64,000 nucleotides of DNA from Candidatus Latescibacterota bacterium. Lineage in GTDB: Bacteria; Latescibacterota; UBA2968; GCA-2709665. The translations under genes and the position numbers were made by a program. Location: assembly GCA_965203805.1 (NCBI GenBank), contig OZ241917.1, forward strand, positions 2,176,001 through 2,240,000, read 5' to 3'. Below the pieces are notes generated by a model that was given only the letters and a program-made list of their open reading frames with translations, was not told the DNA's origin and made no database searches. The first letter of the stretch is position 1, and each line of letters starts with the position of its first letter. Of the stretch, positions 22,180 to 39,638 are shown one piece after another.

Positions 22180-23340
22180 ATGCAGGTTGTGAGCGTCAAG
22201 ACGTTTCTGGTTCATCCGGGCAGCGCGAAGAACTGGCTGTTTGTCAAGGTGGTGACGGACACGGGCATCCACGGATGGGGCGAGGCCTACACCCAGCACG
22301 ACAGGGACCGGAGCGTCCAGGTGCACCTGGAAGAACTGGGCCGGTACCTGGTTGGACGGTCGCCGTTCGACATCAGGCATTTCACGTACGTGGCCTACAC
22401 GGACTTCGCAAGCAAGCGCGGCGCGATGGACCTCTACGCCGCCATCAGCGCCATCGAACAGGCCTTGTGGGACATTGTCGGCAAGACCCTGAACCAGCCC
22501 GTCTACAACCTGCTCGGCGGCGCCTGCAGGACCCGAATCAAGGTCTACGCCAATGGCTGGGGAAGCTGGTACGATCCCGGAAAGGCGCCGGAGCAACTCG
22601 CCGAGCGGGCCGCGGCGGTGGTGGCGAAGGGGTTCACCGCGCTCAAATTCGACCCCTTTCCCGGCCCCTGGCGCAGCATCATCGACGTGAAGGACGAACA
22701 GACCGCCGTGGACCGGGTGGGGGCCGTACGCGAGGCCGTGGGCCCCGACGTGGATATCCTGGTGGAAGTGCACCGCCGGCTTTCTCCGGCAAATGCCATC
22801 CGTGTTGCGCGGCGCATGGAGCCATTCAACCCCTTCTGGTACGAGGAACCGGTTTCCTCCCGCGACCTTAACGGTCTGGCTGAAGCCAGACGGAACATCA
22901 ACATCCCGGTGGTCACCGGCGAGGAACTCTATACCAAAACCGAATTCCGCGACGTGTTCGAGAAACGCGCCGCGGACATCATCAACCCGGACGTCTGCAA
23001 CTGCGGCGGGATTCTGGAGCTTCGCGAAATCGCGGCCATGGCCGAGTCCTGCCACGTCGCGGTGTCGCCCCACAACTACAACAGTACGACGGTAGGCCTG
23101 GCCGCCACAATGCAGGCCGCCGCCGGCATGCCCAACTTCCTGATTACCGAATACTTCGTGAATTTCGAACCCGCGGGCAACGAAATCGCGGTCGGCCCCT
23201 TCGTCGTCGAAGACGGTTACATCGCGCTTCCCGATTCACCCGGCCTGGGCATCGACCTGGACGAGGACGCGCTTACCCGGTATCCGTTCCGACCGTTCCC
23301 TGCGAGAACACTGCGGCGTCCGCGCGACGAAGGACCGTAG
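22180..23340 (+). CDS. Galactonate dehydratase-like enolase-superfamily enzyme
   Basis: YANGW, KFDPF, EVH, YEEP, TGE and SPHN motifs. Confidence 0.9.
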   Translation: MQVVSVKTFLVHPGSAKNWLFVKVVTDTGIHGWGEAYTQHDRDRSVQVHLEELGRYLVGRSPFDIRHFTYVAYTDFASKRGAMDLYAAISAIEQALWDIVGKTLNQPVYNLLGGACRTRIKVYANGWGSWYDPGKAPEQLAERAAAVVAKGFTALKFDPFPGPWRSIIDVKDEQTAVDRVGAVREAVGPDVDILVEVHRRLSPANAIRVARRMEPFNPFWYEEPVSSRDLNGLAEARRNINIPVVTGEELYTKTEFRDVFEKRAADIINPDVCNCGGILELREIAAMAESCHVAVSPHNYNSTTVGLAATMQAAAGMPNFLITEYFVNFEPAGNEIAVGPFVVEDGYIALPDSPGLGIDLDEDALTRYPFRPFPARTLRRPRDEGP

Positions 23341-23437
23341 CGTTTGCATTTTCGCTGTAACCTGCAGCGGTAATTGTACCCGAACGATTCAACCCGGATT
23401 CCAGGCAAACCCGTAATTCACGCGAAGGAGGTCGTCG

Positions 23438-24475
23438 ATGGATCGCGACGAATTAAGAGAGAAATTGGAGGCACTGGAAGTCAGACTGCGCTGGCAGAAA
23501 CGGGCGATTGCAGGATTGCTGGTTGTCTTCCTCTTCAGCGCGTCACCGGCGTTGACCCAGGCGTCGAAGTGGTTCGGGAGCATGCTTCCGGCAAAGCCGG
23601 CCGCGCTGAGCCTTCAACACGGCTGGACGACCGGCGACGTGCGGTTTGGCGATCTTTCGCCCAACAGGGCCGAACTCCCGTTGCCGGAGGCCGGTAACGA
23701 TGGACTGAGCAAAGTCGCTCCCGAGCAAGTCATCGACGCCGGCGATACGCTACGGGTCGGTACCCTCCACATCGTCAATGCAAGCGGGGACGTTGTCGCG
23801 GAAATCGGGTCGGAAGCGTCGGGAGACGGTTCGCTCGTGATAAGAAACAGCAACGGCGCCGTGGTGACCGTTGTGGGCGTAGGCAGAGACGGACACGGCA
23901 CCATGGGCGTCCTCAACACGGCCGGCCGGGTCGCGGCCGCCATGGGCGCCGACCCGTCAGAACAGGCCAATGGATGGGTCGACGTCAGGAGCGCGACGGG
24001 TTCGTTGGCCGCACTCGCATTCGATAATGCCGGAGACGCCGTTATTGCGGCGTTTAACAGGGACGAACACCTGGTCTCCGGATTCGGTATTGACAACACC
24101 GGCGCCGGCGCCTTGCGTATCTCGAATGCGGAGGGCGGGGTCATTGCCGCTATTGGGGCAAATGATAATGGACACGGTCTCATCGGATTCATAAATGCGT
24201 CCCAGCGCATTGTTGCCGGCATGGGAGCGGATTCGACCGGCGTTGGGGGTCTGGGTATTGAGGGGGGCAGGTTCAGGGCCACTGTTGACGGGAACGGCAA
24301 CGGCGTGGCGGAAACTCGAGACAACGACGGTGAGGTTCGCTGGTCCTCTGAAGCGGCCCTCGTCGGGGACACCGGCACGACGAGCGGCCTCATTGGGGAT
24401 TTTGACGGAGACGGCGACGTGGACTTCGCCGACTTCCTCACCTTCACCAGGAATTTCGGCAAAACGAGCGGATAG
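23438..24475 (+). CDS. Membrane-anchored beta-repeat protein with C-terminal dockerin/EF-hand-like motif
   Basis: Coiled coil plus hydrophobic helix, about 8 repeats of roughly 23 aa (GxGxhxhxNxxGxxhxxhG), then GDFDGDGDVDFADFLTFTRNFGK. Confidence 0.8.
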   Translation: MDRDELREKLEALEVRLRWQKRAIAGLLVVFLFSASPALTQASKWFGSMLPAKPAALSLQHGWTTGDVRFGDLSPNRAELPLPEAGNDGLSKVAPEQVIDAGDTLRVGTLHIVNASGDVVAEIGSEASGDGSLVIRNSNGAVVTVVGVGRDGHGTMGVLNTAGRVAAAMGADPSEQANGWVDVRSATGSLAALAFDNAGDAVIAAFNRDEHLVSGFGIDNTGAGALRISNAEGGVIAAIGANDNGHGLIGFINASQRIVAGMGADSTGVGGLGIEGGRFRATVDGNGNGVAETRDNDGEVRWSSEAALVGDTGTTSGLIGDFDGDGDVDFADFLTFTRNFGKTSG

Positions 24476-24681
24476 CATCGGCAGGCCGGGCGGCGACCCC
24501 TGACCGCTCGTCCTCGTTGTGGGGATGGAAGGTATCGGATGGCTCTGGATGGTCGGCAAGGTCCTTCGTATGAAGCGAGTCAATCTGAAGAATCCGAAGT
24601 TCCCAACGCCGCAATCGCCGGTTTTCTGTCGCGTTTTGCGGCTTTTTTTTCGGGAGAGACCTCAAAATCATACGTTCTCTA

Positions 24682-25149
24682 TTGCTCTGCGCACTTGCTT
24701 TGGTCGGTTGCCAGGATCAATTGAAAGAAACCTTCGCTGAATTAGATACCGATCTGCGGGGTGAGAAAAAAGGAATCTGGAAAATAAACATCGAGGCTCA
24801 GAATATTCGCTGGCGATTTTTCTCATACTCTCCCCTGGGTGAACGTAAAAAGGTTTCTGGAGCCTATGAAATAGAATGGAAGAACCGATTTCAAAAAGAA
24901 ATAACTATTGACTGGGGAGCGCGATTTGTAGACGTATATGGGTTGGTGATTGCAGAGTTACCCAATGATACAATTGACGACGTAGTTCTTGTGGCAAAAG
25001 GAACTCATTACCTGGCAAGACCCTTTACAATAGTTGTTGATAAAGTGACAACAGCGAACGAGATCCGGCGCATGGTTTTGTATGTGATGGTCAATGGCAA
25101 AAAGCACAATATCCGAACGGATTTGCGGATAATAAGGGGGTTTCGGTGA
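24682..25149 (+). CDS. Putative lipoprotein (start uncertain)
   Basis: In-frame KIIRSLLLCALALVGC lipobox; beta-rich mature region. Confidence 0.55.
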   Translation: MLCALALVGCQDQLKETFAELDTDLRGEKKGIWKINIEAQNIRWRFFSYSPLGERKKVSGAYEIEWKNRFQKEITIDWGARFVDVYGLVIAELPNDTIDDVVLVAKGTHYLARPFTIVVDKVTTANEIRRMVLYVMVNGKKHNIRTDLRIIRGFR

Positions 25150-25228
25150 AAGAGGCGGCAGAGGTTCAGAGGTTATTTGCGACCGATAACATCCGCATCG
25201 CCATCTTCCTATTTTCCCGATAGGCGCC

Positions 25229-25375
25229 ATGTGGACGCTTACAAACAGACTCGAAGACAAAATTGACGCTCGTTTTGACAAGGTCGAATCCCGCCTGGAC
25301 AGGATCGACGCCCGCTTTGATTCCTTCGGCGAACGTATTGCAATCAACGAAGCCAGACTGAACGACAAAGAGTAA
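25229..25375 (+). CDS. Short coiled-coil peptide or gene fragment
   Basis: MWTLTNRLEDKIDARFDKVESRLDRIDARFDSFGERIAINEARL with a repeated IDARFD. Confidence 0.4.
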   Translation: MWTLTNRLEDKIDARFDKVESRLDRIDARFDSFGERIAINEARLNDKE

Positions 25376-25499
25376 AACCCCTCCCTATCTCACCGATTCT
25401 CAAGCCACGCTTCAAATTCCCACGTTGGCTTGTCCCCCTTGCCCAATTTCACCAATGGGGGATCGCCCGCAAACAACCCTCCTGCAAACTCACCCGGTG

Positions 25500-25790
25500 T
25501 AGCTTGATACTGACGTCTCGTTGCATCTCCGCTTTCGCAGGATGGTGGAGATTACTCGGCATGGTTTCTCGATGTGTTTGTTGTGTTGCAGTCGCAGGGT
25601 AAAACGGGCTTGGGATCGCACGATATAGCTTGCTCGTTTGATGAGTTCGAACCGGATGTGCGTATGGATTTAAGCGGCCACCTGCCGGCAGGCGGGTCGG
25701 TTGGTTTTTTCGTGGTGCGACTGGTTTTTGACCGTCAGCGTTGAAGTGAAGCCGTCGACGCCCTTCTCAATGCGCTGCCAATGGGTGCAT
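25500..25790 (-). pseudogene. Remnant of IS1380-like transposase C-terminus
   Basis: Frameshifted RWPLKSIRT / IRFELIKRASYIVRSQARFTLRLQHN; contains the palindrome cctgccggcagg (25681-25692). Confidence 0.5.
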
Positions 25791-26464
25791 TGACGGATAT
25801 GCCGCTGCTGGAGTTACGCGCCTTTCACGGCGCCCGTCTCCCGAGTCTTCAGCAGACAGGTAACTGGACCAGCCGCTTCCTCCGCTGCAGATCACGAATT
25901 AATCACTGTTACAGGCTATGTTTCCACAGACACGTCACGCATAGATGTGTACATTTGACTCGACATATTTGAGCGACAATGGTCGCAAATATCCGCAAAA
26001 ACACAGATGTCGGGAGGGTGCGCAGGTTTGGGCTCAATCACATCCGGGTAGACTGGGACAGAATAACCGCAATCGAGGAGGAGTAAATCGCGTCGCTGAG
26101 GATTGGCGACGAATGGCGGAGGCGGTAGCGTGGGACGTTTCACAGGGGCGGCCGAAGTAGAGCACCTCACGAGACGCGCGAGTCCCGCCTCTACCTCTGC
26201 CGCTCGTCGGACCCGCCATGCCGAATCGCTCACGGATTTATCGACCGCCAACGGACGTGCCTCCTTGCAGACTCGGGTGAATGACAGACCTCTTGATATT
26301 ATCCGAGGCCACGGACAGTTGCTTCGGCAGCCTGTCGACTCCCTCAGTATGGCAATCCGAGCGAACGGACGACGGACAACTTTCGCGCAAGATTCTGGCA
26401 TTTCCTTGCCGCTGCGTCGACCTCATCGGCAATGACGCCGATGTTTTACCACGGGAGGGATCAA

Positions 26465-27607
26465 ATGAATCCGCTTGAAGAACGACTGAATCGACTGGAA
26501 ACGCGCGTAACGCGCTATCGCAATTTCAACGTCCTGTTGTGTCTTCTGCTGGTAGCCGTTGTGACGGTGGCCGCAAAAGACGGCGCATCGCCGTTTCAGG
26601 CGAAGTCGGCCCCAGCATCGGGCCCGATACCCGAAGCCGATGGCCGAATTCCCGATTTACCGGGCCGTGGCGTAGATGTCGAGATGCAACCGGAGGTCCA
26701 GAGTGCGGGGAAATTGGCCGCGCAGACGCAGGGTGTGATTCGCGCGACAGGACTGCAAATTGTAAACAGCGACGGACAGGCAGTGGTTGAACTCTTCCCC
26801 AGCACTGCCGGCGGTGGGCTTATCTTTGTGAATTCTGCTGAGGACAAGAACCTCGTCTACATTGGATCGTCAGCCTCGAACGGCAATGGATTGGTGCGTA
26901 TCAATTCAGCCCAGGAAAAGAACTTGATAGGTCTGGGATCAATTCCCGATACCAATGATGGATCTATCGATATTAGAAATAGAAACGAAGAACGATTGAT
27001 CACTTTGAATACTTCCGAGGCAAATGGTTGGATTAGAATCAACAAGACCGGCAATGAAAACCTGGCGTATCTGGGTGCGAATACTCGCGATAATGGGCTC
27101 TTGAGTCTAAGCAACAAATCTGGCAAAGGCATGGTGTCGATGTTTGCAGATGAAACCGCCGGTAATCTGAGTTTGCGAAATCAAAGCGACAAGACGATTG
27201 CGTACCTGGGGTGGAGCGGCGAAGGTCAGGGACTACTAGAAATCAACTCCAAAACGGGTACGGAACTCATTACCGCAGGATCAAACGTCGAAGATGACGG
27301 ACTGTTCAGGGTAAGCAATCGCTATGGCACCCTCGGGTATTTCGTCATTAGTTCTGACGCACATGGCTATGCGGCAATTCAGGATAACCAGGAGAGGCTG
27401 CTTGCAGACCTGACCGCGACTGCATCCGGGGACGGACTTGTCCGCACGTTGTCGCGACAAGGCATCACGACCTGGTCGAGCGCTACCGGACAAGGCAACT
27501 CCGGGACGACGTCATTGCTAAGGGGTGATATGGACGGCGATGGAGATATTGACGGGGATGATTTCCTGATCTTCTCTGAAAACTTCGGCAGGAAAAATAA
27601 TCAATGA
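26465..27607 (+). CDS. Membrane-anchored beta-repeat protein with dockerin/EF-hand-like tail (paralogue of 23438)
   Basis: LEERLNRLE plus TM, about 11 repeats, GDMDGDGDIDGDDFLIFSENFGR; SD gggagg. Confidence 0.8.
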   Translation: MNPLEERLNRLETRVTRYRNFNVLLCLLLVAVVTVAAKDGASPFQAKSAPASGPIPEADGRIPDLPGRGVDVEMQPEVQSAGKLAAQTQGVIRATGLQIVNSDGQAVVELFPSTAGGGLIFVNSAEDKNLVYIGSSASNGNGLVRINSAQEKNLIGLGSIPDTNDGSIDIRNRNEERLITLNTSEANGWIRINKTGNENLAYLGANTRDNGLLSLSNKSGKGMVSMFADETAGNLSLRNQSDKTIAYLGWSGEGQGLLEINSKTGTELITAGSNVEDDGLFRVSNRYGTLGYFVISSDAHGYAAIQDNQERLLADLTATASGDGLVRTLSRQGITTWSSATGQGNSGTTSLLRGDMDGDGDIDGDDFLIFSENFGRKNNQ

Positions 27608-30504
27608 TTCTCTTTCCGAAATCTCCACGAAGCCGTTTTGTTTTCCCTGCTTTCGTCCTCATTAGTTATGGCGGCGTGGCTTTCGGAACGCCGCCGATTG
27701 AGTACGTAAAGGAAGATCATCACCCGAAGCTGGAGGGTGTGCTGGCTCGGATTCAAAAGAGCTGGGTGGCGCGAGAAAGGTCCCTTGCGAAAGCGACGGT
27801 AAGACAATATGGCGCGGCGGTTATCGATGGCGAGAATATCAGGGTCGTTTTGGAGCCAACCGAAGGGAAGCTCTCCGATAGTATTGATTTCTCGGCGTTG
27901 TCCGATCTGGGCGTCAGCATTGTCGCCAGATCACGGCATTTATTGAAAGTTTCCACGCCGATAGCTGCACTCGAGAATTTGGCACGGGTGGAGGGCGTAC
28001 AATTCGTTCGGCTGCCCATAAGGCCAAAATTGGATGCCGTTAGCAGCGAGGGCGTGGTGCGCATCAATGCAATGGTGTATTTGAGCAAGAGGTTTACCGG
28101 AAATGGAATAAAGGTCGGGGTCATCGATGCCGGTTTTGTAGGGGTCCGATCACTGCAGAATCGTGGCGAATTGCCTGCTTTGTCTTATCGGGATTTTACT
28201 GGCGAAGGGATTTTTCAGCAGGGTCGTCTTTCTGCAAGGGAAGGGAAGCATGGTACGGCCTGTGCCGAGATCGTTCACGACGTCGCTCCGGATGCGGAAA
28301 TCTATCTGTATAAGGTAAATTGCCTTGTGAGTTGGGCAAACGCCAAGGATGCTGCGATTGAGGAGAGCCTAGACATTGTCACGGTATCGATGTCCTTCCC
28401 GGTAACAGGTTTTGGCGATGGCACGGGTGATGCCTGTGAAATTGTGGATAGTGCTTTTCAAAATAACGTCCTGTGGGTGAATTCTGCTGGGAATTATGCC
28501 CAGAAACAAGTCTCAGTTCGATTAAGCGACCCCGATGGAAATGGTTTTCACAACTTTGATAAAGACAGTGAAATCGTCAACTTGAAGAATATTCGGGAAG
28601 GCGATAAAGTCGAAGCATGGTTGACATGGAATGAATGGCCCCAGACGTCTCAAGACTATGATCTCCTGCTCTATAAATTCGACACGAATGGCAGAACCGA
28701 GCGTGTTGCAAAAAGTGACACGAAACAAGATCAGCATCAGTCAAAGCCCAGAGAACATCTTGTCTATACGATTACGGAAACAGGATCCTATGGCTTTGCG
28801 ATTTGGGGGGCATCTTCTGCCCGAGTTACTCTATTAAAATTGATCAGTCTGAGCCACGATCTAGACGGTCCTGTATCCATATCAGGATCCGTAAGCACGC
28901 CAGGGGATGCTCGCGGGGCGCTGACGGTTGGTGCATTGCATCATTGGCAATGGACTACAGGCCCTATTGCTGGCTACAGTTCGCAAGGACCTACCTTTGA
29001 TGGACGAATCAAGCCTGACCTGGTTGCGCCTGCGGGCGTACTCACCATAAGCTATGGATCTGATGGGTATTTCGGGACATCAGCTGCGACGCCTCACGTC
29101 GCCGGAGCGGCGGCGCTCCTGAAGTCTTCAGATCCGATCTACTACAATGCCAAGAATCTAAAAGACGCGCTGGTTCGATCTACAGTCGATATGGGAGATC
29201 CGAGCCCCAATAACGTCTTTGGACATGGGCGATTGGATCTGTCGTTGCTTCCTCCCATTGGCAGGCCCGTTATGGAACTTTCGCGCAACGTGCTGGATTT
29301 CGGCGCGGTTCTGCTGGGACAGTCCGAGACGCGGAACCTGAGCATTGTCAACCCCGGTCGGGCGTCATTGGTGATTACGGAAATACTCCTGCCGTCCGGT
29401 GAGTTCCGCATCTCGGAACCAACCTTTACTGTCGAGCCTGGGCGCAGCAATCGGACCGCCGTCACGTTTTCGCCTCGGAGCGAGGGCGATCAGTCCGGCA
29501 GCATGACCATACTGAGCAATTTGCCACGGGCCACCGTAACGCTTCAGGCGCGAGGCGTTCGGCAACCCGTTGTTCCGGTACCGCGGATTGCGGTGGATGC
29601 GGCTCTGCGCAATTTCGGCGGCGTCGACGTCGGCAGTTCAAAGTCATTGACTGTCACGGTCACGAACTCCGGAGACGCGTCCCTGTCGGTCACTGATATT
29701 GTCTCCAGCGATGAACGTGTGAGCGTTTCGCCCCGTCAGCTTTCGATTCCGCCAAAGCAGAACGGCTATTTTACGATTCGATTTGAGCCCAGCCAGTCAG
29801 GTGATCTGTCGGCGCGCGTCACCATTTACAGCAACGATTCAGAATCATCCGCGGTCAGTTTTTCCGTTGCCGGAAGGGGCCAACAGCCCGCAACCAGGTC
29901 CTTTGCATTGTCACTTACCGCTGACGCGCCGAAGAATCAGGGCGTCTATGCCGTACCTGAGGACGGCGAAATTGCGGTCGAAATACACGGGCAGCAGATC
30001 AACGACGCCATAGGATTTCGCGCCCTGTTTGACTTTGACGCGGCGGCGTTTGCGTACAGGAGCTTCGATATTGGAAACGGCATTCCGAACGGCCATTCGC
30101 CCGGACACCGTTATCCTTCCCCGGATTCTTCATCCATTGAAGTCACCGCGGCGTCGTTCGGCGGCAAGATTGCGGGGCCGTCGGCGAAACTCGGGACAAT
30201 ACGATTTGCCGCTTCGGACACGTTTCAGGCGGGTCAGATCCGACTGCAGTTCGCGCGCATCCGGCGGTCGGGGGAATTCGAAGGCTTCGCCGATCCCGTG
30301 ATCTTGGAGTTTTCGAAACAAGGCGGACCGACTGCCGACTTCGATGGAGACGGCGCCGTCGGCTTTACGGACTTTTTGCAGTTTGCCGGCGTGTTCGGTC
30401 TGACTCGCGGTGACGCGGGGTATGACGCACGTTATGATCTGGACGGAAATGGCATGATCGGATTCAGTGATTTTCTAATCTTTGCCGGCAGCTTTGGCAC
30501 GTAG
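27604..30504 (+). CDS. S8 subtilase with two ASH/Ig-like domains, cohesin-like and dockerin-like modules
   Basis: Triad VIDAGF / HGTAC / GTSAATPHVAG. LDFGAV and NFGGV Ig domains, GF...FDFD...LGTIRF, and two EF-hand loops ADFDGDG and DLDGNG. ATGA overlap with the upstream gene. Confidence 0.88.
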   Translation: MILFPKSPRSRFVFPAFVLISYGGVAFGTPPIEYVKEDHHPKLEGVLARIQKSWVARERSLAKATVRQYGAAVIDGENIRVVLEPTEGKLSDSIDFSALSDLGVSIVARSRHLLKVSTPIAALENLARVEGVQFVRLPIRPKLDAVSSEGVVRINAMVYLSKRFTGNGIKVGVIDAGFVGVRSLQNRGELPALSYRDFTGEGIFQQGRLSAREGKHGTACAEIVHDVAPDAEIYLYKVNCLVSWANAKDAAIEESLDIVTVSMSFPVTGFGDGTGDACEIVDSAFQNNVLWVNSAGNYAQKQVSVRLSDPDGNGFHNFDKDSEIVNLKNIREGDKVEAWLTWNEWPQTSQDYDLLLYKFDTNGRTERVAKSDTKQDQHQSKPREHLVYTITETGSYGFAIWGASSARVTLLKLISLSHDLDGPVSISGSVSTPGDARGALTVGALHHWQWTTGPIAGYSSQGPTFDGRIKPDLVAPAGVLTISYGSDGYFGTSAATPHVAGAAALLKSSDPIYYNAKNLKDALVRSTVDMGDPSPNNVFGHGRLDLSLLPPIGRPVMELSRNVLDFGAVLLGQSETRNLSIVNPGRASLVITEILLPSGEFRISEPTFTVEPGRSNRTAVTFSPRSEGDQSGSMTILSNLPRATVTLQARGVRQPVVPVPRIAVDAALRNFGGVDVGSSKSLTVTVTNSGDASLSVTDIVSSDERVSVSPRQLSIPPKQNGYFTIRFEPSQSGDLSARVTIYSNDSESSAVSFSVAGRGQQPATRSFALSLTADAPKNQGVYAVPEDGEIAVEIHGQQINDAIGFRALFDFDAAAFAYRSFDIGNGIPNGHSPGHRYPSPDSSSIEVTAASFGGKIAGPSAKLGTIRFAASDTFQAGQIRLQFARIRRSGEFEGFADPVILEFSKQGGPTADFDGDGAVGFTDFLQFAGVFGLTRGDAGYDARYDLDGNGMIGFSDFLIFAGSFGT

Positions 30505-30596
30505 CCTCCTTCATTCACCAAAACGAAACACACATACACAGGGAGGGACAGGATAAATACAGAACAGCGGGAAGAAGGCATTCAATTCCGGATTAT

Positions 30597-31983
30597 GAGA
30601 TATTGTCAAATGTTGTGGATGGCGGCGAGCGTATCCTGATGGATCAGGCGGCGGCTTTGACGTCTCCATCCTCGAATTCGACGCCCTGGACCACGAGTTC
30701 AATGAGCTTGTGACTGTGTAATCGTTGCCAGTGTTTCTGGGCTTGGTCGGCCAGTTTGTAAACCATCATCAACGTGGCGTTTCGAGAGCCGCATCCTTTG
30801 GTCTGGCGCGTGCGGTGGCGAACGGTGCTGAAAGTGGATTCAATGGGATTGGTGGACCGGAGGTGTCGCCAGTGAGCGGCCGGGAAATCGTAAAAGGTGA
30901 ACAGCACGTCCTTGTCTTTTTCCAGGCACGCACACGCTTTGGGGTATTTGGCTTCATAAAGGGACAGAAAGTCCTCGTAAGCGGCCAGGGCATCCTCTCT
31001 GGTGGGTGAGAGATACATCTCGTGGAGGCGCCCTTTGGCCTGCGCCTGGACCGTTTTGGGGAGGTTATCCAGCACGTTGGCACTCTTGTGCACCCAGCAG
31101 CGCTGATGGCTTGTCTCGGGGAAGACTTCCTCCAGCGCGGCCCAGAAACCCAGGCCGCCATCGCCAATGGCCAGGGCAGGCGCTTCTTTCAACCCTCTTC
31201 TTTTCAGGTCCCTGAGCACACCTTCCCAGGACAGCTTGCTTTCACGATGTCCATCCTCGATCGCCAACAGTTCCTTACGGCCATCCTTCGTGGCACCGAT
31301 GATGACTAAGACGCAGGGCCGGTCCGGTTCCAGTCGCACCTGGAAATAGATGCCATCGGCCCAGACATACACGTAGTGTTTATCTGAAAGATCCCGTTGT
31401 TGCCACGCTCGATATTCTTCGTCCCAGATCTGCTTGAGCCGAACGATGTTGGCCGGTGACAGCCCCACCGCATTCTCACCCAAAATCGCAGAAAGTGCCT
31501 CGGGGAAGGACGACGTCGAGACCCCCTTGAGATACAGTGCCGGAATCAACGCATCGATAGAGGGTGCCCGACGCATATATCTCGGCAAAATGGCTGAGCT
31601 GAATGTCTTTCCCTTACGCCTGTCGTGCACACGCGGCTGCCGGATCTCAAGGTGTCCTACGCCCGTGATCAGTTCCCGTGGCTTGTGAGATCCATTCCTG
31701 ACCACTTGCCGGTGACCACGTTCATCCTTCTCCGCTTGCAACCCTTCAACGTAGGCGTCCACTTCAAACTCCAACGCGGCTTGCAGCATCCGCCTGGCCC
31801 CAACACGAATCAGATCTTCCAGGCTCAACGTCACTTCATCTTTGACTATCGTCTCAACTTCGGAGGCCGTATATTGTCTCATCGAGCGTATCCTTCCTCC
31901 CTCGTCTGAGGGATCTCGGGTTAATAGTGATACTATAGGATACGCTCTTTTTTTACCTCATCCACAACTTTTGAATATAACTC
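30597..31983 (-). mobile_element. IS256-family insertion sequence
   Basis: IRs gagatattgtcaaatgttgtggat / gagttatattcaaaagttgtggat; 8-bp TSD cggattat (30589-30596 and 31984-31991). Confidence 0.95.
30644..31882 (-). CDS. IS256 transposase
   Basis: YVWADG, IGDG, QRCWVH and RSTNPIES motifs. Confidence 0.95.
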   Translation of the reverse strand: MRQYTASEVETIVKDEVTLSLEDLIRVGARRMLQAALEFEVDAYVEGLQAEKDERGHRQVVRNGSHKPRELITGVGHLEIRQPRVHDRRKGKTFSSAILPRYMRRAPSIDALIPALYLKGVSTSSFPEALSAILGENAVGLSPANIVRLKQIWDEEYRAWQQRDLSDKHYVYVWADGIYFQVRLEPDRPCVLVIIGATKDGRKELLAIEDGHRESKLSWEGVLRDLKRRGLKEAPALAIGDGGLGFWAALEEVFPETSHQRCWVHKSANVLDNLPKTVQAQAKGRLHEMYLSPTREDALAAYEDFLSLYEAKYPKACACLEKDKDVLFTFYDFPAAHWRHLRSTNPIESTFSTVRHRTRQTKGCGSRNATLMMVYKLADQAQKHWQRLHSHKLIELVVQGVEFEDGDVKAAA

Positions 31984-32144
31984 CGGATTATTACGATAGA
32001 TCCGTCCAGTGTTGGTAAGTTCGGCCTGATTCGGCAACTATACAAACCGTCGATAAATTTCACATCACCGTCAATTGAGAGCAGCCGATTATTCAACAAA
32101 ACCACCGGCTATCTCGAATAACTCAATCCAGGGAGGGGCGTCTC

Positions 32145-32618
32145 ATGAGAAGTGTCATGCCAATTTCGGTCATCTTGGTTTTTGCATTATTGCCTGACGC
32201 GGTTCAAGCCAGGGACCTGATATTCGGAAAGAGCAAGATCGTCGTCGTCGATCTCGACGGAAAGACAAGACAAAAAAAAGCCATTGTTGCGTGGGGCGAT
32301 TCGACTGTATCCTTGCGGTTCAAGGACGGTGACGACTCGGTCCGGTATCGAGAGTATGAAGGTATAATCCGTTACGACCGGATGTCGGACTTGACATATT
32401 CGCATACCAAACATTGGAGAGTTGCCAGCGCCATTTTGTTGTCTCCCCTGACGCTCTTTTCACGGCGAAAGCACCATTGGTTTTCGTGGAATTACGTGGA
32501 TGATGCAGGCAAAAAACATGCGGTAATACTTCGAATTGACAAGAGGGAAGAGAAGCTCTATAGGCGGCACGTTCCTCTCCTTACAGGCTTGGAATTGGAG
32601 ATTGAAATGGAGAATTAG
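32145..32618 (+). CDS. Secreted hypothetical protein (homologue of 36430-36996)
   Basis: Signal peptide ending AVQA; KKAIVAWGD...YEG...MSDLTYS. Confidence 0.75.
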   Translation: MRSVMPISVILVFALLPDAVQARDLIFGKSKIVVVDLDGKTRQKKAIVAWGDSTVSLRFKDGDDSVRYREYEGIIRYDRMSDLTYSHTKHWRVASAILLSPLTLFSRRKHHWFSWNYVDDAGKKHAVILRIDKREEKLYRRHVPLLTGLELEIEMEN

Positions 32619-32885
32619 CCGGTCGCGTTTCCAACTGACACCGAGTCAATAGTAGAAAAAAATCCTAAATCCGACTTGGATCAGAGCAGTTTTTAAATGG
32701 TCCGGATCGGTAATCCTCTTCAGAACTTCGGATAGTCGAAATCTACCTGCTCCATAGTGCGAACGAAATATGGAAACTCTCCGAACCTACTGATTGACCG
32801 GTTCAATTATTGCCACGAGCACTCTAAAGTTCACACTATTACACACCATTGACCCGGCGCCCCGAGCCGCTCCCTGAACATGCGG

Positions 32886-32968
32886 CGCCCTGAGCTTGTC
32901 GAAGGGTCGACGGGTCGGCGAAGGGTCAAAATGGCAGCCAAGCGGGGGGCGCTTCGACAAGCTCAGCG
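32886..32968. repeat. REP-like inverted pair
   Basis: ctgagcttgtcgaag (32890-32904) and its perfect reverse complement cttcgacaagctcag (32952-32966). Confidence 0.75.
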
Positions 32969-33485
32969 TCCCCGTACGGGCAAGTCCCTTTCCACCTTAG
33001 GATGAGCTCAAGACGTCACCTATTTGCCGGTCCTGGCAATAACAGTCATTAGGGCGATATCATCACGGCACACCGGGCACCCGCTGCCCAGGCGTCATCA
33101 CCTGTCTGACAGTCTGTTGATAAGGATGCGCATTGCAGCGCTTCCAACGGGACGTCGAGCAATACTCAGGAAGACGCACTGTTTGGCCCGTGGATACAAC
33201 CCAGCAGATGCAACGAACTTTCACCGGGATGGTCGGGAAGTGGTTACGGTATCTCGATCCGGTGTCGTGAAATACCCATGTGACCGTGTGCGGAAAAGTC
33301 GCCATCTATACCTTGCCTCGTTGAGTGCGATCCATTACATTATTGTCATAGATTACAACCCGGTCAGGTACGCGAAACTTCAATTCGAGGACGTCGTTAT
33401 TGCTTTATAGCGAGATGCCGGTGCCCCGGTCGTACTCCGATTCATCTAAGAACGGCAGGCGGGTGTTCGTGACAACACCATTGAA

Positions 33486-33674
33486 TTGGAAGGGGTGGAT
33501 TTTATGTTAGGTATTTATGAGGCGGTCAAGAAGAAAAACCGGGAGAAGGGACGGGAAGAAGGATTTCAGGAGAGGGATAAGTTGATTAGCGAGTGGTATG
33601 AAAGCGAGAAGGCAAAGGGGACTGAAGGTTTCCAAAATCCACCACCGTTTCTCAACAACGGGTCCACTGAGTAA
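33486..33674 (+). CDS. Small hypothetical protein or C-terminal remnant (EKGREEG...W...PPP)
   Basis: Followed by a terminator; the upstream frame is broken by a stop at 33410. Confidence 0.45.
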   Translation: MEGVDFMLGIYEAVKKKNREKGREEGFQERDKLISEWYESEKAKGTEGFQNPPPFLNNGSTE

Positions 33675-33695
33675 TCTGCTAAACCCACAAATTGG

Positions 33696-33731
33696 AGCGG
33701 CGGTGAAATTGAGCACCGCCGCTTTCTCTTT
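33696..33731 (+). terminator. Intrinsic terminator
   Basis: agcggcggtg / caccgccgct stem with a T-rich tail. Confidence 0.65.
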
Positions 33732-33842
33732 GCCCGATTAGGCCACCCCTTTTATAAGGGAATTATATACTTTACTAACGAGTCGGACTTCTGTATATTT
33801 TATTCAAGAGCAGACACCAACCGATCTTGAAAGGACTGAAAA

Positions 33843-34781
33843 ATGGGACATGAAGCTCCGGGAAAAAGGCACAGGCAAGGTATCAGCGTTATCGAACTGG
33901 CCGAGATGTTTCCGACCGAGGACGCCGCTACAGACTGGTTCGTTGCTCAACGCTGGCCGGAAAGCCGTCCTTGCCCTCGCTGTGGGTTTGGTGAGACGAT
34001 GGTCGTTGCGAATTCCAGGCCGATGCCGTTTCGATGCAAGAAGTGTTGGAAATTCTTCTCCGTCAGAACGGGTACGGTCCTGGAACGGTCGAAGGTTTCA
34101 TTGAAAAAATGGGCCTATGCTGTTTATCTCTGCACCACCAGTCTGAAGGGCGTTTCTTCGATGAAACTGCATAGGGACTTGGGTGTTACTCAGAAGACTG
34201 CCTGGTTTATGGCTCATCGCATTCGTGAGGCTCTGACAACTCCCGGCGGTATGTTTTCCGGTCCGGTAGAGGTAGATGAGAGCTACTTCGGGGGCAAGGA
34301 AGGAAATAAACACAGTTCGAAGAAGCTGAGGGCAGGTAGAGGGACGGTCGGGAAAACGGCTGTTGTTGGTGCGAAGGACCGGGAAACCAATAAAGTCAAC
34401 GCCAAGGTTGCGGATGTTGTTGACGGCAGAAACCTGAGGCAGTTTGTATATGATCATGTAGAACCAGGTGCTGATGTTTTTACAGATGAAGCAAATGCGT
34501 ATAAGGGCCTGTCAGGCGTTCACCACAAGCAGGTGAAACATAGTGCTGGCGAATATGTGGACGGAATGGCCCATACCAACGGGATCGAATCCTTTTGGTC
34601 GATGCTCAAACGCGGTTACTACGGAACCTATCACAAGATGAGCGTCAAGCATCTGCACCGGTATGTCTGTGAGTTTGCCGAGCGCCATAACATCCGAGAC
34701 CTGGATACCATCGACCAGATGAAAGATGTTGTCGCAGGTATGGTCGGAAAACGACTGATGTACAGGGATCTGATTGCATAG
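33843..34781 (+). CDS. IS1595 transposase
   Basis: Zn ribbon CPRCG...CKKC; VEVDESY, FTDE, HTNGIESFWS and EF..RHN motifs. Confidence 0.95.
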   Translation: MGHEAPGKRHRQGISVIELAEMFPTEDAATDWFVAQRWPESRPCPRCGFGETMVVANSRPMPFRCKKCWKFFSVRTGTVLERSKVSLKKWAYAVYLCTTSLKGVSSMKLHRDLGVTQKTAWFMAHRIREALTTPGGMFSGPVEVDESYFGGKEGNKHSSKKLRAGRGTVGKTAVVGAKDRETNKVNAKVADVVDGRNLRQFVYDHVEPGADVFTDEANAYKGLSGVHHKQVKHSAGEYVDGMAHTNGIESFWSMLKRGYYGTYHKMSVKHLHRYVCEFAERHNIRDLDTIDQMKDVVAGMVGKRLMYRDLIA

Positions 34782-34915
34782 AAATCTTAACGATTAATTG
34801 AGATCTGAAGGTTCTGGATATGGCCCTTTGTCTTGTTGATGTGAATGAGGTAGAACAAGTATGGTAGACCTCTGGGAAAGCACATTAATAAGACAGCGCC
34901 GTATTGCGTTTAGCT

Positions 34916-34946
34916 AAAAACCCCTGCTCAACGTGAGCAGGGGCGA
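34916..34946 (-). terminator. Terminator of the toxin operon
   Basis: On the minus strand: cccctgctca-cgt-tgagcagggg followed by ttttt. Confidence 0.7.
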
Positions 34947-34964
34947 AGGTCAGTCGGCTGCCGA

Positions 34965-35270
34965 CTATTGTTTTATGATTCTGTTTAAGTATCGCTCATA
35001 ACCGTTATGCTTGTCCACGTGTAAAACTCGCATCATGTTTTCATCTTTATCGATCTTAAAAGACAATCGATACCTTTTTCCGAGCCTAGCAATCCATACG
35101 CCATTTTGTTGTCTGATATACCTTCCTGGTTTAATCGATTGTGTTTGTGCTTCTTCAAAAAACCGCTTAAGGTTATTCGTCGTCCTTGAATCAAGCCTTT
35201 TGACTGCCTTCTCTACGCTCTTGTTGTGGAACTGGATTTTGCTTATACAAGGGAATTGACTTTCGCACAC
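34965..35270 (-). CDS. RelE/ParE-superfamily toxin-like protein
   Basis: Basic 101-aa protein with WIARLGKRYRLSF...RVLHVDKH. Confidence 0.7.
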   Translation of the reverse strand: MCESQFPCISKIQFHNKSVEKAVKRLDSRTTNNLKRFFEEAQTQSIKPGRYIRQQNGVWIARLGKRYRLSFKIDKDENMMRVLHVDKHNGYERYLNRIIKQ

Positions 35271-35291
35271 TTTTGCCTCTAATTATTAAGG

Positions 35292-35807
35292 CTATAACGT
35301 GTCGATTAATTCCTGCACTGAATAGATCGCCCCCGTTGACGGTTCTTTCTGGCGTATCAAAACAGTAATCAACCAGTCTGTTTCGTACAGAAGTGCATTT
35401 AATGTATTTAGCTCGATAAGCGTTTTTTTGGGCGTATTAACAACTTGCGGGCGGTCTTTCTCAAAAGAAGATATTAATTCCTCTACGTCTCTTATGGAGC
35501 CTTTAGTTTTCTTGATTTGCTCTTTTATATCTATGTACTGTGATACTTTATCTAAGTCGTCTTTTTTGTGATCGTTGTTTTGCAAGAGGTCATAAAATTC
35601 CTTTTGCACCGCTAAGTACTTACAGACAGCGTTATAATGCTTCTCACATGCTTTTTCCAATTTAATAAACAGCTCTTCGAGCTTTTCTTGGTGGTCTAAA
35701 TACCGAGACAAACGCGAAGTTACACTTGGAGATAAATCCTTAGCAGATCCATTCACCAAAGTAGCTGAATTTACCACATGTGGCAATATGGACATCATGG
35801 GGGACAT
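35292..35807 (-). CDS. Putative antitoxin (helical)
   Basis: 21 bp upstream of the toxin; C-terminal GAIYSVQELIDTL resembles RelB-type tails. Confidence 0.5.
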   Translation of the reverse strand: MSPMMSILPHVVNSATLVNGSAKDLSPSVTSRLSRYLDHQEKLEELFIKLEKACEKHYNAVCKYLAVQKEFYDLLQNNDHKKDDLDKVSQYIDIKEQIKKTKGSIRDVEELISSFEKDRPQVVNTPKKTLIELNTLNALLYETDWLITVLIRQKEPSTGAIYSVQELIDTL

Positions 35808-35931
35808 ATTAGCCTCTTTTATGGAAATGACGCGGGATTGCGGCTAAAGGTACAATATGCCGTCTTATAATATACGGAATTACAAAATTCACACAAGGAT
35901 GAATATCTCTCAAATTCGTGAGATACTTCTT

Positions 35932-36126
35932 TCAAATGTTCATCACTTCATCTGCAGAATCACGTTTGAGGGAATCCTGCACATCGCTACGAGAAACACC
36001 CGACGCCTTGTGTTTGCCTTGATTTTCTGAATCGCCTTCCAAATCCTTACCCACAGACCGCAACAGAGCCTTGGCCAGTTCTTCCGGTGTCATATTCAGC
36101 GGGGGTATGGAAACAGCACGTCCCAT
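35932..36126 (-). CDS. Small hypothetical protein
   Basis: SD aggagg; IPPLNMTPEELAKALL. Confidence 0.55.
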   Translation of the reverse strand: MGRAVSIPPLNMTPEELAKALLRSVGKDLEGDSENQGKHKASGVSRSDVQDSLKRDSADEVMNI

Positions 36127-36137
36127 AAATCCTCCTC

Positions 36138-36344
36138 CTATTGCTTAAGCACAGAACTGAGAAACCGCTTTGCCCTATCCTCAGGCTTGGCTTCCTCTTC
36201 TACCTCCTCTTGAGAACCTTCCAGGAACGCCTTTACGACGTTCTTCGAGTCATCTCCTTTGATCACTCGTTCTATCATTTCCCTCGTTCTATCATTTCCT
36301 GTGAAGTAGTCATAGAACCTCCTGTTTCTTGTATTCAGTTTCAA
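36138..36344 (-). pseudogene. Probable 5'-truncated gene
   Basis: No SD; the frame begins next to the internal IR-like site at 36357. Confidence 0.35.
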
Positions 36345-36429
36345 ATTATAATCTAAGGGAAATATAACTATTAGTTAGCACAAAACAAACCAGGAAACTT
36401 AATTACTCTACGGGGCGTTAAGTTTTCGG

Positions 36430-36996
36430 TCATCTGTGAAGATCTCTCTTGTCTACCCAAGTGACATTCAAAATTCCATCAGCCGACGCCGCTCTAAGCA
36501 AATTCCGGTACGCCTTTCGCTCTTTCCCGCTCTTCACAAGCATACCTATATGGACTACCTTGCCGTCAGAATTTTTCGCCGTAAAAGACACCCATCTGTC
36601 CCGACTTCCAGCAAAATACTCCCCTGCGCCTACCAAAAGCGCCTCAACAACAGCTTCGCCAATGGGTCTGTTATGGGGCGAATACCTCACATCGCTCATA
36701 CTGGCATAGCTGTACGTCCCTTCATATCCCGGCCATTTCGACCCATCTTTCCAATTCTTGTACCGAATAGCAACCGCCGTATCACCCCAAGTAACAATGA
36801 CCTTTTTGCGAGAATACCATCCGGTTTCATCTTCGACATGCAGCTTGGCTTTCTTGAATACTCTGTGATGCTCAGAGGCAAGAACCCTTTTGGCATTTGC
36901 CTCTAATGAATCAGCCCGAACATCGTTCCCATCAATAGCTTCGACCGATCCCCCAAAAGCTACAACTACCAGTACTGCAAAAACATACCGCCCCAT
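36430..36996 (-). CDS. Secreted hypothetical protein (homologue of 32145-32618)
   Basis: SD ggagg; signal peptide ending VEA; KKVIVTWGD...YEG...MSDVRYS. Confidence 0.75.
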   Translation of the reverse strand: MGRYVFAVLVVVAFGGSVEAIDGNDVRADSLEANAKRVLASEHHRVFKKAKLHVEDETGWYSRKKVIVTWGDTAVAIRYKNWKDGSKWPGYEGTYSYASMSDVRYSPHNRPIGEAVVEALLVGAGEYFAGSRDRWVSFTAKNSDGKVVHIGMLVKSGKERKAYRNLLRAASADGILNVTWVDKRDLHR

Positions 36997-37247
36997 CGCA
37001 ACCTCCCCCTACATGTGAGTGTAGACTTCCCCTCGGCACCTGAAAAAGGTGCCAGGTGGTTGTCAACGTCCTCGCAGTATGGTTGCGGGAAGGTTCCTGC
37101 TTATTCGCCAGAGACGGGAGCGACCCGCCCCTTTGATAAGAGGCTCTTGTATTCGGCAGGCCACCCGACATGCGGAGGCTGCAAGGACATTGACAAGAGC
37201 CAATATAACATTTTGGCTTGACAAAACAACGGGAATTTTAATGATTT

Positions 37248-37457
37248 TTATGAGAGCAGATTACGAAACCAACCCCTTCTGACTTTGGGATTCTCAGGAA
37301 CAGAGGTACGTGAAACCAATTCCCCAACCTGCAATAGACGAAACCGCGTGCGCGCATCTTCCTCAGAAGTGGCAGCGATACTATGTTCCCAATTGCCTCT
37401 CTGTTTTTCGTTAATATAATTATATCTGAACGTGTACAATTGAAATGAGCCATCCAT
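37248..37457 (-). CDS. Small hypothetical protein
   Basis: SD aaggagg; IAATSEEDA. Confidence 0.55.
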   Translation of the reverse strand: MDGSFQLYTFRYNYINEKQRGNWEHSIAATSEEDARTRFRLLQVGELVSRTSVPENPKVRRGWFRNLLS

Positions 37458-37489
37458 CTCAGAACCTCCTTATGACTGGGGAAAACGAA

Positions 37490-37762
37490 ATGGCACAGCA
37501 AAGACGGTCCGCAAAATATCTCATCAGTTTTAGATCCAGAGTAACGCGAGGTTTTACTTACTTCGTCCGAGAGACAGAGGACAACGAATGGTATTGGGTC
37601 TTGGTATGTAACGAGAACGGTGAAACAATCGCGGACTCAGAACAGTGCTACGCCAACAAAAGAGACTGCATATACGGCCTTCGAATTGTAAGAAACTCCG
37701 TAAGTTGCCCAGTGATTGAACAGCCATTCGAAGAAGATGACGACGAAATCGACGACGTTTAA
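37490..37762 (+). CDS. YegP/DUF1508-like protein
   Basis: EWYWVL...NGETIADSEQCYANKRDC. Confidence 0.75.
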   Translation: MAQQRRSAKYLISFRSRVTRGFTYFVRETEDNEWYWVLVCNENGETIADSEQCYANKRDCIYGLRIVRNSVSCPVIEQPFEEDDDEIDDV

Positions 37763-38179
37763 CATGGCCACTCATTTCCTTTGCCTATCTCCAACAATAG
37801 ATCCCTAATTCTATTAATTTTTTAATATTTCGTTAGCTAAGTATATAATCCCCTTTTATAAAATTCCCGTCGTATTGAGAGGGAACAATGCTGGCGATGA
37901 TGTCCTGTAAAGGGAATTTCCAATATAACAACCAAAACATGCTTCCACGTTTCGTCATTGCAATTTCAGACTCTCTATAGATAGTCACGTCAGGAAATTT
38001 GACTCGTGCCGGGCGTCACGGCCCGTCGATCCGTCAAACGTCCAGCCGGCCGCCCCAATTCGTGATACGTCGACGTCTTCGATATTTACTCCGCTGATGT
38101 TATTGAAAATAAACCGATTATACAAGAAATCCGATGGTTTTCAAGAATAATTCGAATGGAAAGATTCGGGCAAGAAAAT

Positions 38180-38207
38180 AGCCCCGGGAATTAAATCCCG
38201 GGGCTTC
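38180..38207 (-). terminator. Intrinsic terminator
   Basis: agccccggga / tcccggggct stem downstream of the gene ending at 38229. Confidence 0.7.
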
Positions 38208-38228
38208 AAATTAGGTCGAACAAAATGA

Positions 38229-38549
38229 TTATTCATCAAAGGTTTGTTGCACACGAACCAGGGCGAAAATACGAATCAGGTTTAGCAAGAATAAACTTAG
38301 TCCGCCCACGACCAATAAGTGAATAATAGCGCAAATTTCAACAACGAGCGTTTTTTCATCACCCACGTAATATTGACCAAGTAGAAAAATCGAGTATAAG
38401 ACCAAAAGTAAGTGAACCAGAAAAAAGATCACATACATAATAATAAATAAACGGGTTTTTGTGGCTTCCAGAACTTTCTCATTGCCCTTTAAAAGCGCCA
38501 ATATAGAAGCTATAATGGCCATGAGAATGTAAAATTGAACCGGCGGCAA
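38229..38549 (-). CDS. Small 3-TM membrane protein
   Basis: Three hydrophobic segments; 11 bp downstream of the preceding gene. Confidence 0.55.
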   Translation of the reverse strand: MPPVQFYILMAIIASILALLKGNEKVLEATKTRLFIIMYVIFFLVHLLLVLYSIFLLGQYYVGDEKTLVVEICAIIHLLVVGGLSLFLLNLIRIFALVRVQQTFDE

Positions 38550-38560
38550 TAATGCTGTTA

Positions 38561-39158: not shown

Positions 39159-39638
39159 TTCCCTCTACGAACACGTTTGTGCGTTGTTTTTGTACACGTA
39201 ATTTACAGCGCCCGTCTGAGCACGTTAACGTCTCCTTACCGATGACCCCGGCATATCGACAAATTACACATTTACTGAAATAAGTCAATAACGTCGATAT
39301 TTTAACAACGAGTCCCCTCAGCAATCGGGGGTCTATAGGAGCCGAGGCAGCGCAAAACCACATTGCCCCTCAAGGGGGGAGTGATAAAACCCTTAGACGG
39401 ATTCGCGCGTTCACTTGATTCCATTCGGTTGCTGCTGAACGTCGCAAAGGCCCAGCAGAGAAGGAGTGCCGAATACTTGGTATTGTAAGACAAAAACAGA
39501 TTATATTTGTATTACCGACTTTCGTTACGACCTTCAAGTGCATCTCCTTGACCTGCATTTACGCGCACTTCGATGAGCCGTTTCGACAAGGTTAACCCAA
39601 GCAGCGACCGCGTTCCTCCTGAATCAGCTGAATCGTCT

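Follow-up and report, generated by a model that had tools for sequence, protein, structure and literature searches.

Two neighbouring genes in a 64,000-nucleotide stretch of bacterial DNA raise the question of why a protein should end in half a dockerin, and to what such a half could bind. The stretch (positions 2,176,001 to 2,240,000 of contig OZ241917.1, assembly GCA_965203805.1, deposited as Candidatus Latescibacterota bacterium; hereafter the window) contains open reading frame (ORF) A (23438..24475, + strand), which encodes an A-type half-dockerin stalk protein of 345 amino acids, and ORF B (26465..27607, + strand), which encodes a B-type protein of 380 amino acids. We propose that A and B represent a lineage-restricted family of envelope stalks in a non-cellulosomal cohesin-dockerin system and that B probably tethers the presumably co-transcribed S8 protease to the cell, a reading to which we give a probability of roughly 0.5.

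The reading frame of B opens at position 26432 (391 amino acids). Since homologues of B are about 377 residues long and span 96% of that frame, the second ATG, at position 26465, is probably the true start, and residues of B are counted from it. Judged by their sequences, A and B are paralogues: BLASTP aligns them over 289 columns with 27% identity (E value 2e-9), and profile hidden Markov models (HMMs) of the cores, with the tails left out, cross-match (A-type core against B, 1.4e-21; B-type core against A, 1.2e-9). Both proteins follow a common plan: a conserved helix at the N-terminus merges into a hydrophobic one, about 55 disordered residues lead to a hairpin ribbon that closes with a WSS strand, and a Gly/Ser/Thr linker connects this to one dockerin repeat. 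An earlier note on this DNA had ascribed an N-terminal coiled coil with a hydrophobic helix, repeats, a WSS end, a linker and a single tail motif to both genes, and this description is borne out by the translations, the alignments and AlphaFold2 (AF2) models, the coiled coil being a heptad pattern read by eye. Searches of Pfam, NCBIfam and PHROGs gave no family above cut-off for either protein; XhlA (PF10779) scored 16.5 bits against A (cut-off, 34.7) and covered residues 4-34 only.

The tail is a true single dockerin repeat. It comprises residues 320-341 in A (GDFDGDGDVDFADFLTFTRNFG; 24395..24460, + strand), where it was recognised by repeat HMMs of the same genome and by its loop residues, and residues 354-375 in B (GDMDGDGDIDGDDFLIFSENFG; 27524..27589, + strand), where the repeat is divergent and was recognised by conservation and repeat HMMs. 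Both tails read GD.DGDGD.D..DFL.F..NFG after the Gly/Ser/Thr linker, and the five to six residues left before the stop (one to two beyond the 24-residue motif window) allow for a single repeat. In the customary numbering of calcium loops, the loops D-F-D-G-D-G-D-V-D-F-A-D of A and D-M-D-G-D-G-D-I-D-G-D-D of B are acidic at positions 1, 3, 5, 9 and 12, and AF2 places a helix after the loop of A (residues 330-339). The tail of A scores 36.3 bits against the first-repeat HMM of the double dockerins of this genome and matches a double-dockerin ORF at E 1.7e-6. For the tail of B, the repeat-1 HMM gives 16 bits and the repeat-2 HMM 21, and conservation across 62 sequences is complete at 16 of the 22 positions. 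Across the five stalk proteins of the genome (A, B and the paralogues C, D and E described below), tails score 16-47 bits against repeat HMMs built from 41 same-genome double dockerins; those of A and C resemble first repeats and those of D and E second repeats, while that of B is the most divergent.

Single repeats at the C-terminus are peculiar to the stalk proteins within this genome. Of 24 Dockerin_1 matches in the genome (E <= 0.01), 15 exceed the cut-off, 13 of these alone and two together with neighbours in frame. A motif scan of the genome returned 56 motif-bearing ORFs, with 41 two-repeat dockerins counted by motif and 28 ORFs with one motif; among the latter, true C-terminal singles occur only in the five stalk proteins, two ORFs have an N-terminal single, and the rest have a degenerate second repeat. 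PF00404 gave no match to A or B at E up to 1, and the NCBIfam model dockerin_GC reached 12.2 bits on B (cut-off, 29), as is explained by one repeat being half of the model. Compared with a type I dockerin (PF00404), the tail thus shares the loop and helix signature and the repeat homology, but it has one repeat in place of two in tandem of about 22 residues each.

A precedent for dockerins of this size exists. Duarte et al. (2025; PMC12270676) describe group-2 truncated dockerins of Ruminococcus flavefaciens that possess one calcium loop, are functional and, as the crystal shows, occupy a ScaE cohesin with two copies. According to the authors, no other naturally truncated dockerin is known to function, and a single rumen bacterium is the only known source. 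As to the idea of the earlier note that single EF-hand halves could pair into a docking module, the tail is a real single repeat, and pairing as such has a published parallel (PMC12270676). The precedent also makes docking of the tail on a cohesin reasonable. Stalk proteins like A and B were not found in the literature on dockerins in Gemmatimonadota or sponges and on truncated, half, short or single-repeat dockerins, judged mostly from titles and abstract openings.

A candidate partner is encoded directly downstream of B. The start of the next gene (27604..30504, + strand) overlaps the stop of B by 4 nt, and its product is an S8 protease of 966 amino acids (in Pfam and NCBIfam, Peptidase_S8 at 1.2e-27 and choice-of-anchor D at 2.7e-28) with a signal peptide, two immunoglobulin-like domains, a divergent cohesin and a full dockerin. 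The two-repeat dockerin lies within the last approximately 55 residues (residues 911-964; 30334..30495, + strand) and matches the 2y3n_B dockerin (single sequence, E 7.7e-5; profile, 3.2e-10). The preceding residues 761-905 (29884..30318, + strand) appear to form a member of the cohesin family that is recognisable only through homologues and profiles. A search of 1.84 billion representatives with the 206-residue C-terminal module gave 3346 relatives (E <= 0.001). Cohesin PF00963 was present in 12 of 30 short homologues of this module at E <= 0.01 (five over the cut-off), always just before the dockerin, and profile A3 of the module matches the solved cohesin 4uyp_A at E 5.2e-4. In the ESM Atlas, cohesin clusters appear at 0.89 for the module, a value that is a lead only.

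The linkage between B and the protease gene is strict. In all 15 genomes that have both, B is directly followed by the S8 gene on the same strand, with B first. The two co-occur in nine of the 15 genomes of the own genus (g1) and in six genomes of genus g6. The other six g1 genomes gave no match to either the B or the S8 query; in them, A occupies the same site on its own, and no cohesin of this kind lies within 16 kb of it. The arrangement extends to the distant genus g5 (G021; L055 4772-9504), where a stalk gene of 439 codons with 27% identity lies 9 nt upstream of an S8 gene with 34% identity whose product (1134 amino acids) contains a dockerin preceded by two cohesin-like modules. In G026 the B-S8 pair is present twice in tandem. 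Some genes are split over two frames, namely the A-type gene in G013 (L045 4710-5884) and the S8 gene in G011, in the second copy of G026 and in G040 (L043 7938-11308; L049 6917-10459), which points to frameshifts or a decaying cassette in these relatives.

The A-type gene is present in all 15 g1 genomes, own included (E <= 1e-100), and A follows an enolase-superfamily gene in five of five same-genus loci compared, and also in G014 and G009. Full-length B-type genes were found in nine of 15 own-genus genomes and in nine of the 21 genomes that represent a genus from the sister family. A third genus yielded weaker, repeat-only matches in 12 of 31 genomes, and phylum-wide 35 of 168 genomes match at E <= 1e-15. 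A large protein collection contains 129 relatives of B and 124 of A at E <= 0.001. None of the best 120 in either set has a precomputed Pfam domain, and the 11 named relatives among them (one of B, ten of A) are all entered as 'hypothetical protein' of Gemmatimonadota metagenome-assembled genomes. When paralogue D was used as the query, six proteins were found at E <= 0.001 among 8000 scored candidates. The stalk family is lineage-restricted, being seen in a few Gemmatimonadota genera, and has no Pfam or NCBIfam model.

The earlier note had also called for a paralogue census. The core HMMs match exactly five ORFs in the 5.87-Mb genome: A, B and, in coordinates of the genome contig, C (1826505-1827680; 392 amino acids, 60% identical to A over the full length), D (4161139-4162302; found with the core HMM) and E (3426512-3427120; 203 amino acids, with an ordinary signal peptide). 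The type IX sorting domain TIGR04183 has 13 matches in the genome, none of which is in stalk proteins A to E. An HMM of the cohesin part recognised only four ORFs in the genome, three of which lie beside stalk genes B, D and E. Their products are the S8 protease next to B, a WD40 protein whose gene converges with D, a cadherin/fn3/leucine-rich repeat (LRR) protein 2.2 kb from E, and an LRR protein without a stalk neighbour. The only two Pfam-level cohesins of the genome, at 3329402-3330061 and 3837822-3838487, directly precede sorting domains of the type IX secretion system (T9SS) kind in proteins of 1776 and 360 amino acids that both end in such domains; these two proteins are probable surface anchors for the approximately 41 double-dockerin proteins.

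Two further regions of the genome contain dockerin proteins near stalk genes. Directly upstream of C, two tandem genes (1822916-1826377) each encode a WD40 beta-propeller that has a signal peptide and a double dockerin, and no cohesin-like part was detected in either. A dockerin-rich stretch at 3413000-3433000 comprises, along with paralogue E, two proteins with a single N-terminal dockerin repeat (3413693 and 3417057), a T9SS-tailed protein (3428963-3429199) and the cadherin/fn3/LRR protein, whose cohesin-dockerin module is N-terminal.

A complex prediction with S8 residues 761-908 and two copies of B residues 331-380 lends weak support to docking of the B tails on the S8 cohesin and is a small increment only. 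The prediction scored 0.45, the best of three controls scored 0.14, and three runs agree in at least 96% of contacts. The corresponding mark is reached by 116 of 157 solved complexes and two of 215 mismatched pairs in a benchmark, where scores of at most 0.60 belong to 18 of the 157 solved complexes plus both mismatches that passed. Because cohesin-dockerin complexes have already been solved, the pass may reflect likeness to them.

The part of the stalks that separates tail and N-terminus is predicted to be a hairpin ribbon of the MORN/G-box/OspA kind that lacks the sequence signature of these proteins, and not a beta-helix. According to AF2 and the repeat layout, and for A also the periodicity, the core comprises residues 105-305 in A (23750..24352, + strand; 18 strands, ending in VRWSS) and residues 92-340 in B (26738..27484, + strand; approximately 21-23 strands, ending in TTWSS). 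BLOSUM autocorrelation peaks at 23, 46 and 70 residues in A and at 22-24, 45 and 68 in B, with periodicity z values of 7.5 and 5.2 that were matched in none of 1000 shuffles. Together with the AF2 strand layout this agrees with the repeat length of about 23 residues that had been read from the sequence before. Each repeat is a beta-hairpin with two strands per unit, the strands being 5-7 residues long and joined by turns of about five residues. When units are laid on the AF2 strands, A has eight (21-25 residues each) and B has ten, plus opening and closing strands, the ten units of B being followed by the WSS strand. Overall this amounts to 8-9 versus 10-11 repeats, to which the previous count of about 8 versus 11 comes close. 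W302, S303 and S304 are invariant or nearly so in 61 A-type sequences, as are W337, S338 and S339 in 62 B-type sequences.

The AF2 monomer models, computed from a 61-row alignment for A and a 62-row alignment for B, are long antiparallel beta-hairpin meanders, with a mean predicted local distance difference test score (pLDDT) of 68 for A (core, 76-86 per 10-residue block) and 74 for B (core, 79-95). The strands follow the pattern x-h-h-x-h-x, and in most of them positions 3 and 5 are hydrophobic in 100% of the 62 B-type sequences. Given this alternation, from which alone the sheet faces were assigned, one face of the sheet should be uniformly hydrophobic. Foldseek against the PDB placed engineered OspA single-layer sheets on top (A, E 2.5e-9; B, 2fkj_A at E 5e-9 and a template modelling (TM) score of 0.48), followed by Rhs and teneurin shells. 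VIA-align, a search independent of Foldseek, returned OspA (Z 11.5), CPAP TCP10/G-box (Z 10.7), Trypanosoma brucei MORN1 (Z 10.5) and junctophilin (Z 9.5); the matches with Z of 10.5-11.5 span 165-243 residues, and for MORN1 (6t4r) 201 residues were aligned with a root-mean-square deviation of 5.9. In the viral structure library BFVD, giant-virus MORN proteins came out on top and a T4-like gp37 fibre ranked 34th with a TM score of 0.12. Despite the MORN-like predicted fold, the Pfam family MORN (PF02493) did not match A or B at E up to 1.

These results bear on the earlier proposal that A and B form fibres of different lengths built like phage spike shafts. Elongated repeat shafts whose lengths differ between the paralogues are retained, whereas the beta-helix gives way to an antiparallel meander with OspA, CPAP and MORN as structural neighbours; the suggested Foldseek comparison with gp5/VgrG beta-helices, run on the monomer models, put OspA first and had no gp5/VgrG or tail-spike chain among the listed neighbours. 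A curli-like beta-solenoid was set aside because AF2 pairs both strands inside each repeat, and an A-B hetero-oligomer because of the unequal repeat numbers and the occurrence of A without B in six of 15 genus genomes.

The N-terminus of A (residues 1-46; 23438..23575, + strand) is a helix that continues into a hydrophobic helix, so that it could act as a signal anchor or, with a long n-region, as a signal peptide. AF2 models the helix at residues 3-34 in A, with a further one at 37-46, and at residues 3-38 in B. Its second half is the most hydrophobic stretch of each protein (best 19-residue Kyte-Doolittle window, 1.74 at residues 23-41 of A and 2.17 in B). Invariant in this region are L13, E14, W19 and R22 in the 61 A-type sequences and E5, R7, L11, E12, Y18, R19 and N22 in the 62 B-type sequences. 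An HMM of the N-terminus gave E < 1e-4 among the ORFs of the genome for A, C and D only. Read by eye, the helix has a heptad-like pattern, and small residues stand at -1 and -3 of possible signal-peptidase sites after the hydrophobic helix. The conserved N-terminus may thus be a lasting membrane anchor or part of an unusual cleaved signal. It is followed in A by a Pro-rich linker (residues 47-104; 23576..23749, + strand) that was modelled with low confidence (pLDDT 23-47).

Taking the predicted topology and the gene context together, we propose that the N-terminus would hold the stalk in the cytoplasmic membrane while the ribbon self-associates, since a uniformly hydrophobic face favours self-association, most simply as a parallel dimer. 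The half-dockerin would then dock on a cohesin, which for B would be the divergent cohesin of the S8 protease, and two tails may occupy one cohesin as in the group-2 dockerins of R. flavefaciens. As a result the S8 protease would be tethered to the cell, and its full dockerin would stay free for another cohesin, for example that of either of the two type-IX-sorted cohesin proteins. The polarity of such a system would be opposite to that of the cellulosome, with the (half) dockerin on the anchor and the cohesin on the enzyme; A would be the ancestral, stand-alone paralogue. Docking as such is supported by gene context and precedent and is not proven. More tentatively, and with a probability below that of tethering itself, it is tempting to speculate that membrane-anchored MORN-like ribbons dimerise and so pair their half-dockerins into one docking unit that captures enzyme-borne cohesins, which would couple assembly to capture. 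If so, a sponge symbiont would hold a protease and eukaryote-like WD40 and LRR proteins at its envelope by this means.

Several observations weigh against tethering by membrane-anchored stalks. Gemmatimonadota are generally regarded as diderm, and in a diderm envelope a stalk in the inner membrane would be periplasmic. The type IX tails of the canonical cohesin proteins should place these on the outer surface, where an inner-membrane stalk could not reach them. Accordingly, either the stalk N-terminus is cleaved or the docking partners may meet in the periplasm. The signal peptide of paralogue E is of the plain type, and neither A nor C has a cohesin-bearing neighbour at its locus. MORN and G-box sheets can be stable monomers, so that a hydrophobic face is no proof of oligomerisation. 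On the side of the protease, a direct Pfam scan of the cohesin region gave no Cohesin match at E up to 1, and the dockerin of the protease, which begins about five residues downstream of the cohesin, might fill that cohesin in cis. In the complex prediction the tails had a pLDDT of only 45-46, which leaves their fold uncertain.

Some of these points would be accommodated if the stalks were cargo, that is, secreted fibres or adhesins whose signal peptide is cleaved and whose half-dockerin plugs into the type-IX-anchored canonical cohesins, with the linkage to the protease reflecting co-regulation or processing. The T9SS sorting domains of the 1776- and 360-residue cohesin proteins, the ordinary signal peptide of E, the lack of a cohesin-bearing neighbour for A and C, and the possible signal-peptidase sites seen by eye all fit such a role. 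We nevertheless regard it as unlikely, because the helix that precedes the hydrophobic segment is as conserved as the rest of the protein, which is unexpected for a discarded signal peptide, and because both the persistence of the B-S8 pairing down to 27% and 34% identity and the location of three of the four cohesin-dockerin module genes next to stalk genes argue for a direct partnership. Still less probable is that the stalk serves the S8 protease as substrate, inhibitor or maturation partner. The protease might for instance cleave the linker and free the ribbon, while the calcium loop would do no more than stabilise the C-terminus and would dock to nothing. The 4-nt stop/start overlap and strict co-occurrence of B with the protease gene, as well as the long disordered linker, would be compatible with this, but D and E pair with non-protease WD40 and LRR/cadherin proteins that share the cohesin-dockerin module, so the common denominator is the module and not proteolysis; moreover, the tail of B is almost invariant, more than a cap needs.

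The phage-like alternative, in which three chains intertwine into a trimeric fibre with three single EF-hand halves at the tip, likewise appears improbable. In its favour are an elongated ribbon, whose 5-7-residue strands and Gly/Asn turns might make up the sides of a triangular prism, a heptad-like N-terminal helix (by eye) and a uniformly hydrophobic face that needs burying. The monomer models are antiparallel meanders, however, and they have no gp5/VgrG or tail-spike chain among their listed neighbours; PHROGs contributed no family for A or B at E up to 1, and the genes adjoining the loci are metabolic or encode surface proteins, with no phage gene noted. N22 of B stands at a heptad core position and would favour dimers, as an Asn at such a position does in GCN4. 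Furthermore, the published truncated dockerins bind in pairs and not in triplets (PMC12270676). On balance we prefer envelope stalks of which B tethers the protease.

The genomic setting of B differs from that of A. Positions 1-8000 and 24000-40000 of the window contain segments with a guanine-plus-cytosine (GC) content of 0.42-0.55 within a background of 0.60-0.65. The second of these low-GC segments begins right after A; B, the S8 gene and two transposases lie inside it. The segment with B and the S8 gene has a GC content of 0.53-0.55 versus about 0.63 around it and is bounded by an IS256-family insertion sequence (30627..31947, - strand; Transposase_mut, 5e-74). The transposase ORF of this element (30644-31882, - strand) lies directly downstream of the protease gene, and its inverted repeats of 20 nt (30627-30646 and 31928-31947) are 80% complementary. 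Low GC content and the bordering IS256 element fit a patchy, accessory distribution of the B-S8 pair. The same segment contains an IS1595/ISXO2-like transposase at 33843-34781 (DDE_Tnp_IS1595, 8.7e-38, with a zinc ribbon). A repeat search around the genes gave nothing relevant except the inverted repeats of the insertion sequence, and Rfam had no match at gathering score over the whole window.

The spacer between A and B (24476..26431, about 2 kb) has a lower GC content and was not found in five same-genus loci compared, where A-to-B gaps measure approximately 110-2200 nt. It contains a lipoprotein-like ORF (24682-25149, + strand; 155 amino acids, N-terminus ending in LVGC) that has no Pfam or NCBIfam match and no BLASTP match in the five same-genus loci. 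A metagenome contig of run X16, covering 23300-26610, includes the spacer. Contigs of an RNA library (run X19) cover parts of A (23404-23554 and 23855-24045), the spacer ORF and parts of the protease gene (27711-27938 and 29169-30443); because DNA may be present in this library, these contigs do not prove expression, and the lack of contigs on B is uninformative, as the sample's own DNA contig has diverged too far there. Near-identical DNA occurs in sponge metagenome runs of two studies (shares, 0.27-0.41) as well as in marine and coral metagenome runs, and contigs of two sponge runs, 90-99% alike, span most of the stretch. Together with the WD40, LRR, cadherin and fn3 cargo, the DNA in sponge runs fits a sponge-associated bacterium.

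Among known systems, the shafts of phage spikes and fibres (T4 gp5, VgrG, gp37) share with the stalks a long repeat shaft and a terminal binding element, but for the stalks a meander is predicted instead of an intertwined beta-helix, and there is neither a sequence family nor a convincing structural match in common. Closer in predicted fold are MORN1 (6t4r), the TCP10/G-box domain of CPAP (4bxp) and OspA sheets (2fkj, 8xwg), which like the stalks consist of hairpin repeats of about 23 residues in one long antiparallel sheet. The stalks differ from them in the spacing of glycines (G.G + 8 + G, which deviates from the MORN consensus) and in having one fully hydrophobic face, and MORN, G-box and OspA proteins lack the N-terminal anchor and the dockerin tail. 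The ribbon would be a bacterial, unannotated counterpart of the MORN/G-box single-layer sheets.

With respect to cohesins and dockerins, modules outside cellulosomes were reportedly surveyed by Peer et al. in 2009. Compared with the type I cohesin/dockerin pair (PF00963/PF00404), the S8 protease combines a cohesin-like module with a full dockerin in one protein. If docking is real, connectors of this kind can be wired with the plug on the anchor, and single-repeat dockerins are a general solution and not a rumen oddity. The half-dockerin described here terminates all members of a protein family from a different phylum, and this family is genetically locked to cohesin-bearing proteins. Docking would also offer a concrete handle on sponge symbionts that display proteases and eukaryote-like repeat proteins. 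The nearest analogue is the group-2 set of R. flavefaciens, whose members (PMC12270676) resemble the stalk tails in having one calcium loop and a helix at the C-terminus of proteins of other function, one of them even being joined to a cohesin-like module. This likeness is one of architecture, and the settings differ: there, a Gram-positive cellulosome with the cohesin on a cell-bound scaffoldin; here, a sponge-associated Gemmatimonadota bacterium with a protease as cargo, in which the presumed anchor carries the half-dockerin and the enzyme the cohesin.

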